DNA of 20,000 nucleotides from an uncultured virus (IMG/VR IMGVR_UViG_3300010157_000055) (IMGVR_UViG_3300010157_000055); one strand, 5' to 3'; counted from the first letter of the stretch, positions 6,808-20,000 are shown. Notes: generated by a model from the sequence alone, not told the origin. Numbers and translations: made by a program.

Positions 6808-8634
6808 ATGGCAGACATTCCAGTTATACCCGGCGTTTCAGTTACCCCAATGGGGATACTCAATAGACCAATCAAAGACATCATTTGTGCTATCCTTTTT
6901 GGTGGCATCAATAACATGCTCAAAGGAAATTTACTTTGTGTAAATTTAGACTTGGAAAAATTGTTAGATGAACCAATTGTTGCAGACATAAAAGCCGAGT
7001 TGACAGATCTAAAGAATGAACTCAAGGCCATGGAAGAAGCGTCTGGTATCAAAGATGTGCTTGGCCGAGTCAATCAGGGCATCGCTGAAGTTCAAAATCT
7101 ACTGGCACTGGATGGCTTATGTAAAATTCCACTGAAGTGTCCTCCGATACCCGACATCCTGAACATGACCATTGACGCAGAGTTTGCCACTGCCAATGCA
7201 ATTTTGGATGATATTGGTAGATTAGAAAAACCAAAATTATGTATCAATGGTGCTGGTGGTCTCAATACTGGTTCATACAATCCCAGTAGCATCTTGGGTA
7301 GAATACAAAGCAACATTACCAGACTGGGAACTATTCCTGGTCATGAATTAGACATATTAAAAAGACAATTGACACGAGTGACTGCTGGACTAAAGGCCAG
7401 TCTCAATAGACAGTTGTTTCCAGATTTCAGACACAAGACAGATTTGACAACAGGCAGGCCATATGCTAAAGGTGGTGCTGGTGTAATACTGGCCAGTGCC
7501 GCTGAACAGACCAAACTGAAGGCCAAGATTGCCGCTGACTCAGCATCGCCTGCAGGCCTACTGGCATGGCAACAGGTAGCAAACATGCCTGGAGCATCTG
7601 CCGCGGATATTCAAGCATCATATCCGCCAGGTGACGCCAGTCTAAAAGATGCAGTCAACATAGCACAGACTCTGGTAGGTGGAATGAAAAAGACTGCCAG
7701 TTATCCTTCCACAGCCAATGGAATTATAAATGCAAACATGTGGCCCGGTGTGTTGGGTCCAGACATATATGCTATGGCAGTACAGGCAATGAGTCCACAG
7801 GACCCGCTATTTGTACAACAAGATCCACTGTATGATTATTGCGGTAAGTTCATTGGATACAATGAAACAGTTATAACCGGCGACTCTGCATACAAAGGTG
7901 GCGACCCAAAGAAAGATGCTGTATTGAATCCACCCAAAACAAACTTTGAATTCAATTGGATCGCAGATAGACAATGTTGGGCAGTCACTGGCGTACAAAG
8001 CGAGCAAGTGGTAAATGGAAGAAAGGACACTTATCTAGATGCAAATCCAGAAATTGAATTGCATCGAGGGTATAGTCATATTCTAAGTGTGCCAAGTGCT
8101 GACATCAGTGGATTCGTTATGAGTGGCGACTATCCAACAGCAACTAGTACGGCTCCAGAATTTTTTATATGTCGAGTTGGAAACGATCTAAGGCCACTGA
8201 TTGCCAATGGCGAAATTGTCAAGTTCAACATGGGACTAAGCAGACTTGAGACATCAGAAGTATTGGACAATGCCAATGGTTGGCTACCAAGTGAAACAGA
8301 ACATGCGGGTATTGATGGTCCAGAAGGATACAATCGTAGATTAGAAAACCCAATGGGTACCACATTGTATTTTTCAGTCGAACAACGACAATACTCGGGT
8401 ACTGTTCCTCCGCTGTACCCAAGCAAGGACATTTGGTGGTATAATCCAACCACTCTTATAACACAACAGTGGATACCAGATGGCGAGGCCAGTGGTCAAT
8501 GGGTTGTAGTATCTGATCAGGATAGAAACAATCATTGGTATGGATCAAGTCCTTTGCAGAGCGATATAAGTGCAAACTATCTGGCCTACAGTAATCGAAA
8601 TGGTTCAGTTTTTGGCCTATTAAAATTAATTTGA
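6808..8634 (+). CDS. Large hypothetical protein, probably virion-structural (608 aa)
   Basis: Long ORF after the PAAR and M15 genes, preceded by ATAAGTA. Helical N-terminal half; NPEIELHRG and PSKDIWWYNP segments recall phage tail/structural proteins. Confidence 0.7.
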   Translation: MADIPVIPGVSVTPMGILNRPIKDIICAILFGGINNMLKGNLLCVNLDLEKLLDEPIVADIKAELTDLKNELKAMEEASGIKDVLGRVNQGIAEVQNLLALDGLCKIPLKCPPIPDILNMTIDAEFATANAILDDIGRLEKPKLCINGAGGLNTGSYNPSSILGRIQSNITRLGTIPGHELDILKRQLTRVTAGLKASLNRQLFPDFRHKTDLTTGRPYAKGGAGVILASAAEQTKLKAKIAADSASPAGLLAWQQVANMPGASAADIQASYPPGDASLKDAVNIAQTLVGGMKKTASYPSTANGIINANMWPGVLGPDIYAMAVQAMSPQDPLFVQQDPLYDYCGKFIGYNETVITGDSAYKGGDPKKDAVLNPPKTNFEFNWIADRQCWAVTGVQSEQVVNGRKDTYLDANPEIELHRGYSHILSVPSADISGFVMSGDYPTATSTAPEFFICRVGNDLRPLIANGEIVKFNMGLSRLETSEVLDNANGWLPSETEHAGIDGPEGYNRRLENPMGTTLYFSVEQRQYSGTVPPLYPSKDIWWYNPTTLITQQWIPDGEASGQWVVVSDQDRNNHWYGSSPLQSDISANYLAYSNRNGSVFGLLKLI

Positions 8635-8659
8635 CAAGCCGATCAAATAAGTATATACT
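8631..8659 (+). promoter_or_regulatory. Sigma70 promoter for the tmRNA (TTGACA-N17-TATACT) with embedded ATAAGTA motif
   Basis: TTGACA at 8631-8636, TATACT at 8654-8659, ATAAGTA at 8647-8653. Confidence 0.8.
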
Positions 8660-8665
8660 GTAAGT

Positions 8666-8956
8666 TATTGCTGTATGAAGCAAAGAGAAAAGTGTTCTGG
8701 ACGGGGGTGCGAATCCCCCCAGGTCCACCATAAGCACATAGTTGTCCTAGATGAAAGAAACCTCTTAGGGCTCTAGTGGGGATTGTGTGCTTTTGATGGG
8801 CCTGACCTAGATTCGACAGGGCAACAAGTAACAGAGTGGACAGCACGACAGCGATAGTCGTAAAAACTAAACAAAAGTAACCGCAAACGACTCACAGTTC
8901 GCATTAGCGGCCTAACAGCCACTTAGGGTAAGACATACCTCGTAACAGAAACTCAG
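8666..8956 (+). ncRNA. ssrA: Circularly permuted two-piece tmRNA; tag peptide (A)ANDSQFALAA
   Basis: The acceptor piece has T-arm GGGGG-TGCGAAT-CCCCC and ends CAGGTCC-A-CCA at 8730. After a 67-nt intervening hairpin, the coding piece begins GGGCCTG at 8798, giving a 7-bp acceptor stem with G3-U70, followed by GATTCGAC. The tag frame is 8883-8915. Outer boundaries are approximate. Confidence 0.95.
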
Positions 8957-8985
8957 AAAAGGTTGCTTCGGCAACCTTTTTCTTT
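8957..8985 (+). terminator. Intrinsic terminator
   Basis: AAAAGGTTGC-TTCG-GCAACCTTTT followed by TCTTT. Confidence 0.9.
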
Positions 8986-9032
8986 ATAAGTATTTTTATA
9001 ATACGAACATTATCACACTAAAGAATATATCA

Positions 9033-9488
9033 ATGGCTGAAATATTAATTGCAACAGAACAAGATAAAAGCGGCACAGATGTGACAATTTATATGGCGCA
9101 AACAATTGCCGGAAGTCCGGTGTATCCATTTTATTTAAAAAATTATGCAGAATTAATGGATGCAGGTTTGGCTCAATCTCTGCTGTATTCATCAAATCGA
9201 ACCAAAGCAGTATATGCAACGATTGACAATAAGGTTGTTGGAAACATAGTTTATGAAATACAAGAAGATGTTTTCAAGTCCTGCTACTTGTTGTTTAGTG
9301 CAGTTGACGAAAATTTTAGACAGCGTGGAATTTTGAAATTGATGCACAACCACTTTGAAGTTATTATTAAAAAACAAGGTGCAAAAAAATTGTACAGCTT
9401 TGTCCATGTAGATAATGCGCCCCGAATCGCCAGTTGTGTGGGCCTAGGTTTAGAAAAGCAATTTTATAAAATGTATAAAGTGTTGTAA
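9033..9488 (+). CDS. GNAT-family N-acetyltransferase
   Basis: AVDENFRQRGI acetyl-CoA motif A, then VHVDN...GLGL. TATAAGTA lies upstream at 8985-8992. Confidence 0.8.
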   Translation: MAEILIATEQDKSGTDVTIYMAQTIAGSPVYPFYLKNYAELMDAGLAQSLLYSSNRTKAVYATIDNKVVGNIVYEIQEDVFKSCYLLFSAVDENFRQRGILKLMHNHFEVIIKKQGAKKLYSFVHVDNAPRIASCVGLGLEKQFYKMYKVL

Positions 9489-9528
9489 AAATACAACACT
9501 TGACCATTGTTTCCCTTTGTGCTATAAT
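9481..9528 (+). promoter_or_regulatory. Palindrome TGTTGTA-AAAA-TACAACA plus sigma70 promoter TTGACC-N17-(TGn)TATAAT
   Basis: Palindrome at 9481-9498, -35 at 9500-9505, -10 at 9523-9528 with extended TG. Confidence 0.8.
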
Positions 9529-9551
9529 ACTGTATGAAACAGGAGAATCAT

Positions 9552-10055
9552 ATGGAATTAGTAGAAAGAGCCAGAATTTTTGCAACAGCGGCCCATACCG
9601 CTGTGGCACAATTACGGAAGTACACTAATGAGCCGTACATTGTGCATCCTGCCGAAGTGGCCAGCATTGTTGCCACAGTTCCCCACACTCCCGAAATGTT
9701 AGCGGCCGCTTGGTTGCATGATGTGGTTGAAGACACTGGTGTTACCAACGAAGTGATCCGTGCTGAATTTGGCGCCACAGTTGCAGAGTTGGTTGGCTGG
9801 TTAACTGATGTCAGCAGGCCCGAACAAGGCAATCGTGCTGTCCGCAAGGCAATAGACCGGGCACATACTGCTGGTGCACCTGCTGAAGCACAGACTGTAA
9901 AGTTGGCCGACTTGATCTCCAACACCAGAAGCATCGTGGCACAAGATGTTGCCTTTGCCAAAGTGTACTTGGAAGAAAAGCGGTTGTTGTTGGAAGTGTT
10001 GACTCGTGGTGATGCCACATTGATGGCAGAAGCCAGGACCAGTGTGTCTAAATGA
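9552..10055 (+). CDS. HD-domain hydrolase of RelA/SpoT hydrolase type (small alarmone hydrolase/Mesh1-like)
   Basis: AH..QLRKY..EPYIVHP..VA, AAWLHDVVEDT and VKLADLISN. AGGAG SD at 9541-9545 favours ATG 9552. Confidence 0.85.
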   Translation: MELVERARIFATAAHTAVAQLRKYTNEPYIVHPAEVASIVATVPHTPEMLAAAWLHDVVEDTGVTNEVIRAEFGATVAELVGWLTDVSRPEQGNRAVRKAIDRAHTAGAPAEAQTVKLADLISNTRSIVAQDVAFAKVYLEEKRLLLEVLTRGDATLMAEARTSVSK

Positions 10056-15450: not shown

Positions 15451-15648
15451 ATGCAGGATCGTGACCATGTACGGCAACGAATGACTGAAATTATGGAGCT
15501 CATAGACAGCTCTATTCAGTTGACAGACGATAGAGAAGAGCTTATAATGTTAGCATGTGCCATGTTACAACGCACAGTAGAATTACTCGATGACACTATT
15601 GGTGAACAAGGTCGAGATACCATATTAAAAGGATCACTAAGTGAGTAA
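15451..15648 (+). CDS. Hypothetical protein (65 aa)
   Basis: AAGGA SD and helical acidic sequence; first of a tightly packed run of genes. Confidence 0.7.
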   Translation: MQDRDHVRQRMTEIMELIDSSIQLTDDREELIMLACAMLQRTVELLDDTIGEQGRDTILKGSLSE

Positions 15649-19314: not shown

Positions 19315-19343
19315 TAGACTTCTAAGTTAAAAGGATATATAAT
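19315..19343 (+). promoter_or_regulatory. Sigma70-type promoter TAGACT-N17-TATAAT
   Basis: -35 at 19315-19320, -10 at 19338-19343. Confidence 0.75.
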
Positions 19344-19349
19344 AATACT

Positions 19350-19415
19350 ATGTTAAATGTAAAATTGTTACCAGGTAATACAGGACCAGCCACAGAGGAT
19401 ACTCCGAGGCCGTAA
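19350..19415 (+). CDS. Putative leaderless leader peptide MLNVKLLPGNTGPATEDTPRP (21 aa)
   Basis: The ATG falls at the expected +1 of the promoter, and the stop codon lies inside an antiterminator hairpin. Confidence 0.55.
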   Translation: MLNVKLLPGNTGPATEDTPRP

Positions 19416-19469
19416 CTCTACGCATAGTGAGATTACAGGCCCTGGAAATAAAAACTCCGGGGCTTTTTT
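19403..19469 (+). terminator. Attenuator-like terminator with competing antiterminator
   Basis: Terminator GGCCCTGGA (19438-19446) / TCCGGGGCT (19456-19464) plus T run. In the alternative fold, 19403-19418 pairs with 19429-19446. Confidence 0.75.
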
Positions 19470-19474
19470 ATTGT

Positions 19475-19550
19475 GCGGGCGTAGCTCAGTTGGTAGAGCA
19501 TTACCTTGCCAAGGTAAATGTCGTCGGTTCGAACCCGATCGCCCGCTCCA
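19475..19550 (+). tRNA. tRNA-Gly (anticodon GCC)
   Basis: 76-nt cloverleaf: GCGGGCG/CGCCCGC acceptor stem, anticodon loop TTGCCAA, TTCGAAC T-loop, U discriminator and encoded CCA. Confidence 0.97.
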
Positions 19551-19554
19551 GGCT

Positions 19555-19621
19555 TGTTGTAGAAATACAACAAAAATAAAGGCAGATAGTTGTTGACAGG
19601 AATGAGTAGATAGCATATACT
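19555..19621 (+). promoter_or_regulatory. Palindrome plus sigma70 promoter P1 (TTGACA-N17-TATACT)
   Basis: TGTTGTAGAAATACAACA at 19555-19572, -35 at 19593-19598, -10 at 19616-19621. Confidence 0.85.
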
Positions 19622-19662
19622 AGTTGAATACTGTAGCAATACAGCAGAAACAGTTTGAAAAG

Positions 19663-19728
19663 TGTTGTAGAAATACAACAAAAGAAAGTTAGAAAACGGT
19701 TGACATTACGGCATTGTCCGTATATAAT
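19663..19728 (+). promoter_or_regulatory. Palindrome plus consensus sigma70 promoter P2 (TTGACA-N17-TATAAT)
   Basis: TGTTGTAGAAATACAACA at 19663-19680, an A-rich tract, -35 at 19700-19705, -10 at 19723-19728. Confidence 0.85.
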
Positions 19729-19735
19729 AACCAAA

Positions 19736-19771
19736 CACTACAGCGAAAGTTGTAGTGATTGTTCTTTAAAA
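19736..19771 (+). promoter_or_regulatory. boxB-like hairpin plus boxA-like antitermination element
   Basis: CACTACAGC-GAAA-GTTGTAGTG (19736-19757), then TGTTCTTTAAAA (19760-19771); E. coli rrn boxA is TGCTCTTTAACA. Confidence 0.7.
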
Positions 19772-19787
19772 ATTTGGTGGCATTTGT

Positions 19788-19862
19788 GCTCGATTCGTCT
19801 ATCGGTTAGGACATCTGGTTTTCATCCAGGCAAGAGCGGTTCGATTCCGCTATCGAGTACCA
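19788..19862 (+). tRNA. tRNA-Glu (anticodon TTC)
   Basis: 75-nt cloverleaf: GCTCGAT/ATCGAGT acceptor stem, anticodon loop TTTTCAT, AGCGG-TTCGATT-CCGCT T-arm and encoded CCA. Confidence 0.93.
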
Positions 19863-19878
19863 TATGCAAGAATACTAA

Positions 19879-19996
19879 GGTTACCTAGACCACTAGGCGA
19901 CTGGGATGATGGCAGTGCCGACGGGTGCTGGTCAAGTCCAGGAGCATGAAACAGGCGCAAGCTGGATTTGCGGTGGACAATCTAGGAGTAATGACC
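19879..19996 (+). ncRNA. Possible structured non-coding RNA of unknown class (may extend past the window)
   Basis: GC-richer non-coding stretch after tRNA-Glu. Long-range pairing CCTAGA/TCTAGG and CCAC/GTGG, with internal hairpins including a GCAA tetraloop. Confidence 0.35.
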
Positions 19997-20000
19997 GTGC

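Follow-up and report, generated by a model that had tools for sequence, protein, structure and literature searches.

A candidate translation-operated transcription attenuator ahead of the tRNA cluster of an uncultured giant phage

Why do phages carry tRNA genes, and how is the expression of these genes timed? This old question arises at one end of a 20,000-nt stretch of DNA from an uncultured virus (IMG/VR record IMGVR_UViG_3300010157_000055), here called the window, where a compact unit stands directly ahead of a tRNA-Gly(GCC) gene. It comprises, on the + strand, a promoter, an ATG at the expected transcription start, a 21-codon open reading frame (ORF), an intrinsic terminator and, 5 nt further on, the tRNA gene, all of them where a sequence-only reading of this DNA had placed them. 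The observation of the unit is confirmed and lies far beyond chance. What does it do? The unit probably acts as a transcription attenuator of the trp kind, operated by translation and standing at the head of the tRNA cluster in a giant phage. Recent work links phage tRNAs to the evasion of host defences that cut tRNA (eLife 2023, PMC10264068; Nature 2024, PMC11464382; Nat Commun 2024, PMC11555353).

The leader, its competing helices and its reading frame

The promoter is of the sigma-70 type (19315-19343, + strand), with the -35 element TAGACT (19315-19320), a 17-nt spacer and the -10 element TATAAT (19338-19343), and it matches the consensus at 10 of 12 positions. Relatives carry TTGACT or TTGACA as the -35, and GATATATAAT is invariant in 22 of 22 aligned variants. 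Promoter-like sites are just mildly enriched in the surrounding 2 kb (9 against 4.6 +/- 1.9 expected), and the promoter call therefore leans mainly on conservation in relatives. The ORF (19350-19415, +; product MLNVKLLPGNTGPATEDTPRP*) consists of 21 codons and a TAA stop at 19413-19415, and its ATG begins 6 nt after the -10. The A of this ATG, at 19350, is the predicted transcription +1; as the ATG lies 5-6 nt after an invariant TATAAT, the leader mRNA would be leaderless.

The 3' part of the leader and the sequence beyond it can be divided into four regions, all on the + strand. Region 1, (C)GGAG around a GAG codon, forms a hairpin with the beginning of region 2 (19393-19406; 19393-19397 with 19402-19406 and a GAUA loop) that is weak here, with four of five pairs. 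Region 2, CUCCG through the stop and a few bases (19403-19418), is the 5' strand of the antiterminator and includes the last four sense codons, the TAA stop and 3 nt beyond. Region 3, the antiterminator 3' strand (19429-19446), ends in 8 nt (19439-19446) that are also the terminator 5' arm. Region 4 is ACUCCGGGG, the terminator 3' arm. The terminator (19439-19469) has a GC-rich stem of eight pairs, one of them G-U (19439-19446 with 19456-19463), a loop of 9 nt (19447-19455) and a T6 run (19464-19469). A simple consensus terminator scan did not report this hairpin, because it permits loops of 3-8 nt only. RNA folding does form it, with a minimum free energy of -34.3 kcal/mol (z = -2.19; equalled by 5 of 200 shuffles). 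The loop is unusually conserved, ACUAAACAC in most variants and AAUAAAAAC in the window, and in several variants it partly repeats the first transcript bases after the AUG (19350-19362), CUAAACAC.

What makes the arrangement suggestive of a switch is that the end of the ORF (ACTCCGAGGC, 19401-19410) is nearly duplicated across the terminator 3' arm (ACTCCGGGGC, 19454-19463), as the sequence-only reading had remarked. The near-duplication is real, and so is the pairing that was said to follow from it: 19403-19418 pairs with 19429-19446 through 15 pairs, one A/C mismatch and two 1-nt bulges. In the window this 2:3 duplex has an energy of -20.2 kcal/mol, against a mean of -9.5 over 300 shuffles of the 5' strand, none of which reached it. 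Over the 22 aligned variants the 2:3 duplex is always present, at -16.2 to -28.2 kcal/mol, and takes in the whole terminator 5' arm (shuffled means -5.8 to -9.8 kcal/mol; observed value reached by at most 3 of 300 shuffles). The competing 3:4 duplex spans -11.9 to -16.0 kcal/mol (-14.7 in the window), 1:2 spans -4.0 to -14.2 (the window's -4.0 is the weakest) and 1:4 spans -4.7 to -14.3 (-5.6 in the window). Regions 2 and 4 are near-copies in every variant, and both can therefore pair with region 3 and with region 1.

Is the competition maintained when the sequence changes? The inner part of 2:3 exists in at least five sequence versions, GGCCGUAA/UUACGGCC, GGCUUGAUC/GAUCAAGCC, GGGGUUAAUUCU/AGAUUAAGCCCC, GGGCCUGAUUCU/AGAAUCAGCCC and GGGCUUG/CAAGCCC, all still complementary and each with the stop, TAA or TGA, inside the helix. 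The terminator 5' arm varies as CCCUGG, CCUCGG, CCUUGG or CCCCGG and is matched in region 4; its variable bases, C or U, are matched in region 2 as well, bulges or one mismatch aside. The terminator stem is 100% paired in 22 of 22 variants, with two of its eight pairs changed on both sides in six variants each. The 1:2 helix is 87.3% paired, with one pair changed on both sides. When the 1:2 and 3:4 columns are taken together, 95.1% of cells are paired against 27-58% for slid positions, and none of 500 shuffles reaches the paired share, the number of double-changed cells (14) or the covariation score. For 2:3 on a MAFFT alignment, 80.5% of cells are paired against 29-53% slid, and 33 of 500 shuffles reach the covariation score. 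An alignment fitted with a covariance model, which leans towards structure and improved recovery of 2:3 only slightly, gives 80.0% paired, five double-changed pairs and a score reached by 0 of 500 shuffles; the model search behind it returned seven weak reverse-strand matches at the first E-value, and a stricter one was then applied. One fixed register fits 2:3 poorly because bulge positions differ between clades. Conservation of both hairpins across related phages had been suggested as a check, and both helices hold their pairing against slid and shuffled controls.

The relatives are uncultured freshwater phage contigs, found by anchoring on the neighbouring gene for a 180-aa protein: 13 loci are viral and 31 come from metagenomes, and the unit occurs in every one of the former and in 22 of the latter. 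Five of the nine metagenome loci without it are cut by a contig end within the anchor gene or at most 175 nt from it; the others (L103, L104, L108 and L112) have other genes downstream of the anchor gene, and the unit is missing. One further locus, L023, added by a motif scan, has the same unit behind a different upstream gene and before a different tRNA-Gly sequence. Altogether there are 23 distinct variants, of which 22 were aligned; L097 was omitted, its frame and hairpins reading as in L008. The association with the tRNA is close. In protein-anchored loci, which were not selected for the unit, the unit with its -10 and ATG stands directly before 20 of 21 distinct tRNA-Gly(GCC) upstream regions, and in the 21st (L114/L115) it adjoins the 5' piece of a tRNA-Gly gene split by an insertion. 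The sole tRNA-Gly(UCC) encountered is without the unit.

In L114/L115 (about 2258-2790) the tRNA-Gly(GCC) gene is interrupted after the D-arm by some 450 nt that encode a 128-aa HNH endonuclease frame (Pfam HNH_3, E = 3.5e-6; HNH, E = 1.9e-4), and this phage tRNA gene thus seems to have taken up an intron or a homing-endonuclease insertion.

In a collection of cultured phages, megablast found nothing and blastn matched tRNA parts only. A loose DNA pattern run over viral contigs hit 61 stretches, 14 of which are the unit, all on contigs already known. The pattern scan of genome contigs gave three matches, roughly as many as chance would give for 19 bases; neither promoter nor ORF accompanies any of them, and two resemble plain terminators.

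Does selection act on the frame? That the mini-ORF should be conserved in relatives was another check proposed beforehand, and it is kept in all 23 distinct variants, with 20-25 codons and an ATG 5-6 nt past TATAAT. Lengths are 63, 66, 69 or 78 nt, and the distance from ATG to an invariant GAG codon is 42, 45, 48 or 57 nt, with clade-specific indel sites, all multiples of 3. In L109 a compensated +2/-2 change is found: the loop that follows GAGG has 2 nt more and the segment ahead of the stop 2 nt fewer, with the result that the conserved CUCCG is read in another frame while the position of the stop in the helix is unchanged. Arrival at the stop would thus seem to count for more than the residues encoded at that point. 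In the portion of the frame ahead of the structured segment, codon positions 1, 2 and 3 differ by a pairwise mean of 0.372, 0.355 and 0.469, and the synonymous share is 0.234 in the ORF frame against 0.165 and 0.089 in the shifted frames, for 21 distinct frames whose pairs are non-independent. The N-terminal Leu and Asn are kept through synonymous changes (TTA/CTA/TTG, AAT/AAC), and the middle of the peptide varies freely. The signal of reading-frame selection in these comparisons is moderate, not overwhelming.

Hairpins followed by a U-run are the usual 3' ends of bacterial small RNAs. Could the unit, then, be an independent small gene, specifying a micro-protein or a small peptide-encoding RNA of about 120 nt, with tRNA-Gly expressed through leaky read-through and 2:3 serving RNA stability or the peptide's own translational control instead of regulated termination? 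The fairly well kept N-terminal residues (Leu2 in 16 of 21, Asn3 in 15 of 21, Leu6 in 19 of 20) with their synonymous changes are in keeping with this, as are the hairpin and U-run and the unusual conservation of the terminator loop ACUAAACAC; the middle and C-terminal residues, however, are free to vary, and L109 reads the conserved C-terminal nucleotides out of frame. Precedent exists in Sinorhizobium meliloti, where attenuator RNAs and leader peptides are reported to act in trans (PMC6614838 and PMC7298713). Four leader peptides had no PHROG match at E <= 1 (two of the queries began one codon early), which is weak negative evidence as the queries are so short. What a small gene would leave unexplained is why region 2 copies region 4 and co-varies with region 3, and why the unit is constantly placed before tRNA-Gly(GCC) with no intervening promoter. 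This explanation is considered unlikely.

Ribosome position and the predicted fate of the transcript

How might an attenuator of this type operate? Host RNA polymerase would initiate at the A of the ATG and produce a leaderless mRNA, and a 70S ribosome would translate the 21-codon frame, whose stop sits in region 2. Region 2 may then pair with region 3 to give the antiterminator, or region 3 with region 4 to give the terminator with its U6; in most relatives region 1 offers a further partner for region 2 or region 4. If the ribosome keeps pace and arrives at the stop, it would cover region 2, the terminator would form, and transcription would end 5 nt before tRNA-Gly(GCC). A ribosome lagging in mid-frame, its A site at about codons 10-15, would cover region 1 and leave region 2 free, and 2:3 would form. 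Region 4 would then stay single-stranded and the polymerase would enter the tRNA gene. It follows from such a mechanism that the switch would report the pace of translation against that of transcription and not the supply of one amino acid.

Ribosome positions were modelled with a footprint that reached 18 nt upstream and 12 nt downstream of the first A-site base and was slid along the frame; the results are those of equilibrium folding with an assumed footprint. For the terminator 3' arm, the pairing probability is 0.98-0.99 in 22 of 22 variants when the A site holds the stop codon, and masking from the 5' end to 12 nt beyond the stop leaves the terminator alone in 22 of 22. This bears out the earlier suggestion that a ribosome at the stop favours termination. 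Values under 0.7 are confined to A sites some 5-11 codons ahead of the stop (roughly codons 10-15) and occur in 20 of 22 variants, with minima of 0.08-0.68; in L114, which has 25 codons, the unpairing window lies further upstream. The proposal that a stalled ribosome would allow read-through is thus supported by folding for A sites near codons 10-15 only, and in the window's own clade the effect is weak (0.66-0.68).

And if there is no ribosome at all? Transcripts that end before region 4 fold into 2:3 in most variants. Full transcripts adopt, as best fold, either 1:2 with a shortened 2:3 and the terminator, or 2:3 nested in 1:4; in both types a stem abuts the U-run. The terminator 3' arm is paired at 0.84-1.00, and in many variants its partner is region 1 rather than region 3. 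The prediction of read-through in the absence of translation is accordingly not supported by equilibrium folding, although kinetics could let an untranslated leader read through. The modelled behaviour is the three-state logic of the trp leader: the untranslated leader is predicted to terminate, the fully translated leader likewise, and the leader with a ribosome on region 1 to read through. The mutually exclusive layout on which this depends is conserved, with 2:3 in 22 of 22 variants and the ORF in 23 of 23.

That two alternative folds arise at equilibrium without a ribosome may raise the question of whether one is needed. The unit could be an RNA switch operated by a protein, a tRNA, another RNA or temperature, the frame being a by-product; the conserved loop and its partial identity with the transcript start (CUAAACAC) could be binding sites. 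A by-product would hardly be expected to persist in 23 of 23 variants, to tolerate indels only in threes apart from one compensated +2/-2 shift, or to have its AUG always at the predicted +1 and its stop always in region 2. No Rfam family, T-box included, matches at E <= 1. The chance that the ribosome has no part is judged to be slender.

RNA-library evidence and the possible signal

Parts of the stretch occur in six RNA-recorded runs, four of which were examined, as assembled contigs. Three contigs from three studies (19364-19900, 19361-19600 and 19397-19866) cross the terminator with more than 31 bases on each side, and therefore the leader and tRNA-Gly share one molecule in those libraries. 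Of the bridging contigs, one has its end at 19364 and another at 19360, which places these ends 10-14 nt into the predicted transcript; the third has adapter sequence next to its end at 19397. Those of the upstream gene stop at 19376 and 19383, and within the same runs they are shallower (2.5 against 14, and 5.8 against 58.9). High depth over the tRNA stems from short conserved pieces of other organisms. The contigs are compatible with a start near 19350 and some read-through.

What would the leader sense? The sequence-only reading noted the glycine codons GGT, which the downstream tRNA reads, and GGA, but the leaders have only 1-3 GGY codons per 20-25, against 5.4% GGT plus GGC in window genes, and their positions depend on the clade. 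Glycine-codon sensing was rejected, as GGY is neither enriched nor at conserved positions; in one clade the sole GGY codon is so near region 2 that a ribosome stalled on it would be expected to promote termination. At the codons where stalling is predicted, clades differ (Thr, Asn, Gly, Pro). GCC is common two codons before GAG (16 of 21) and may be kept for pairing. Nor is the leader supported as a sampler of codons read by the cluster tRNAs. The most economical reading is that the unit senses the lag of the ribosome behind the polymerase. A link to host tRNA cleavage or starvation, which had been put forward as an example of a trigger, is speculation.

A number of observations weigh against a translation-operated attenuator. 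The sequences form few clades, and variant counts therefore overstate independent events. Counts of pairs with changes on both sides are unremarkable: three for 1:2 plus 3:4, reached by 407 of 500 shuffles, and numbers reached by 377 of 500 and 85 of 500 in the 2:3 tests. RNAalifold failed to find 2:3 in the MAFFT alignment (17 of the 22 variants, truncated ahead of region 4) and proposed instead five region 1:3 pairs at -1.9 kcal/mol. Region 1 is degenerate in the window's clade (1:2 at -4.0 and 1:4 at -5.6 kcal/mol), and the pairing of the terminator arm is predicted to drop only to 0.66-0.68 there, at codons 13-14; for L101 and L115 the lowest values, 0.71 and 0.84, stay above 0.7. In many relatives region 4 can pair with region 1 beside 2:3, so a stem at the U-tract may form in both states. 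No codon is enriched or repeated, as would be expected of the regulatory codons in this class of attenuators, and the agreement of leader codons with the first nine tRNAs of the cluster (11 of 20, with 39% as background) is not significant (p = 0.11). The next tRNAs have strong promoters of their own (19593 and 19700), and the switch would thus govern little beyond tRNA-Gly. Assembled contigs are unreliable for ends or levels, DNA may be present in RNA libraries, and two contigs span the promoter, joining the upstream gene to the leader.

These last two contigs suit another explanation, in which the hairpins serve the 5' processing or the stability of the tRNA-Gly precursor, or do no more than terminate the upstream protein operon, and have no regulatory role. 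The nearby tRNA-Glu leader, which also has a conserved hairpin and lacks an ORF, points the same way. Yet the unit keeps a consensus promoter of its own in all variants, accompanies tRNA-Gly behind a different upstream gene in L023, and includes a conserved ORF and a competing helix, neither of which a plain hairpin requires. Of the explanations considered, this one is given the smallest chance.

Attenuators in known systems and the possible role of the phage unit

How does the proposed attenuator compare with established ones? The leader-peptide attenuators trpL, hisL, leuL, thrL and pheL precede amino acid operons in enterobacteria. Like them, the phage unit has a short leader frame and a terminator, an antiterminator that competes with the latter and extends over the frame's end, and a region 1 that can pair with region 2; a ribosome at the stop is likewise predicted to favour the terminator. 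Three features of the class are thus found: a short ORF with a usable start at the transcript 5' end (its translation being predicted from sequence), an intrinsic terminator between this ORF and the tRNA gene, and an antiterminator that overlaps the ORF end and excludes the terminator. Unlike trpL-type leaders, the unit has no run of codons for a single amino acid, its mRNA would be leaderless and without a Shine-Dalgarno sequence, its stop lies inside region 2, and the gene controlled would be a phage tRNA gene, not a biosynthetic operon. It also has no Rfam leader match: the Trp, His, Leu, Thr and Phe leader families and the T-box do not reach the gathering score in the leader, and at E <= 1 there is no leader match on the identical locus L001 or on L008.

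Two further bacterial systems are instructive. Term-seq in Firmicutes reportedly revealed antibiotic-responsive, ribosome-mediated attenuators. These leaders share with the phage unit a small frame, a terminator/antiterminator pair and the lack of an amino-acid-specific codon run, and their output is set by where ribosomes slow, as is proposed here; they differ in belonging to bacterial resistance genes and in having frames led by a Shine-Dalgarno sequence, whereas here a phage tRNA gene follows. T-box riboswitches likewise make a terminator/antiterminator choice in a leader and are tied to tRNA biology, but the phage unit shows neither Stem I nor a specifier loop nor a T-box sequence, and it matches no Rfam family at E <= 1; the ribosome rather than a tRNA would be the sensor, unlike in the T-box, as the ORF is conserved.

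Leaderless leader peptides are not without parallel. The paper PMC4007540 summarises leader-peptide attenuation of enterobacterial amino acid operons and predicts fourteen leaderless leader peptides for attenuation in Deinococcus deserti, before aminoacyl-tRNA synthetase and amino acid genes. There the transcription start is also the AUG of a small leader frame and attenuation is proposed; unlike the phage unit, those leaders are rich in the cognate amino acid, chromosomal and placed before protein genes, and they are likewise predictions. Small leader peptides are noted for Corynebacterium glutamicum as well (PMC3890552). Elsewhere in the phage itself, other candidate leaderless genes are weakly supported: the frame at 9534 has, at 9552, an ATG led by a Shine-Dalgarno sequence; that at 634, with no Shine-Dalgarno sequence and a -10 lying 8 nt before its start, is ambiguous; and the site at 15520 falls within a gene.

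The sequence-only reading knew of no such switch for phage tRNA genes, and a full-text literature search agrees, having found no leader-peptide control of these genes, with the older T4/T5 tRNA literature poorly covered. It is tentatively proposed, with less confidence than the attenuator itself, that giant freshwater phages place a leaderless sensor of ribosome lag, unspecific as to codon, at the head of the tRNA cluster, such that slowed translation yields more phage tRNA. If this is true, the phage would gauge translation performance and adjust its tRNA supply, a feedback loop from the performance of translation to the supply of its machinery and a general, so far undescribed regulation of viral tRNA genes. 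The slowing might come from decay of the host tRNA pool, tRNA-cutting defence nucleases or starvation. Leader-peptide attenuation would then also be found with an RNA gene, in a virus and in a sensor that has no run of cognate codons. The unit is compact (about 160 bp), has a standard sigma-70 promoter and is amenable to reporter or coupled in vitro systems.

The window is phage-like by its Pfam matches, which include the large and small subunits of ribonucleotide reductase, a peptidase M15, an HD-domain protein and a subtilase. Its right end is the start of a tRNA cluster, with tRNA-Gly(GCC) at 19475-19550 on the + strand (ARAGORN; Rfam tRNA, 71.2 bits), directly downstream of the unit, and tRNA-Glu(UUC) at 19788-19862 (ARAGORN). 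The gap from the T-run to tRNA-Gly(GCC), 5 nt here and at most about 45 nt in relatives, is too short for a promoter to fit. In a 285-kb relative, record G002, the same unit stands ahead of the first of 28 (Rfam) to 29 (ARAGORN) tRNA genes.

In a related clade (L008, 3547-3728; also L009, L010, L011, L012, L095-L098 and L102) an extra unit precedes the tRNA-Gly unit. In it a consensus promoter is followed by a leaderless frame of 14 codons, MMTHFSIAGSISIR or MMKHFSIAGSISIR, whose stop is covered by an 8-bp hairpin with no T-run; 4 nt further on lies an unusual tRNA of 92 nt (anticodon UAU; Rfam tRNA, 52.4 bits), whose extra arm is long. Three codons of the frame are ATA, which accounts for 1.1% of codons in window genes (P for at least 3 in 13 codons = 3.5e-4, post hoc). 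Is it a codon-matched leader? The composition suggests that it may be; or it may instead be a decayed tRNA, since part of it resembles a tRNA T-arm.

An inverted repeat, GTGTTGTA(G/A)AAATACAAC(A), recurs at 9480-9499, 19555-19577 and 19663-19686 and is conserved in relatives. It lies a few to about 15 bases 5' of the -35 of the consensus promoters at 9500, 19593 and 19700, and A-runs, not T-runs, follow it on the window strand. It could be the binding site of a dimeric regulator or an RNA hairpin at transcript ends. Between 19593 and 19790, two near-consensus promoters are less than 110 bp apart. Only short hairpins, without an ORF or tRNA, follow the one at 19593. The one at 19700 leads to a conserved hairpin (19736-19757) and a GTTCTTTAAAAATTTGGTGGCA stretch immediately 5' of tRNA-Glu; these form a second conserved tRNA leader, one without a reading frame.

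Between tRNA-Glu and tRNA-Leu is a G+C-rich spacer of about 210 nt (window 19863-20000; L001 4096-4308), within which the window ends. It is without an ORF and without an Rfam match at E <= 1, and may be a structured RNA. Far upstream, at 8617-9006 (+), the window has a permuted two-piece tmRNA gene (Rfam beta_tmRNA, 136.5 bits; tmRNA_permuted, 121.8 bits), with the tag peptide ANDSQFALAA according to ARAGORN. A promoter-like consensus site at 8631, TTGACA-17-TATACT, overlaps the predicted tmRNA start.

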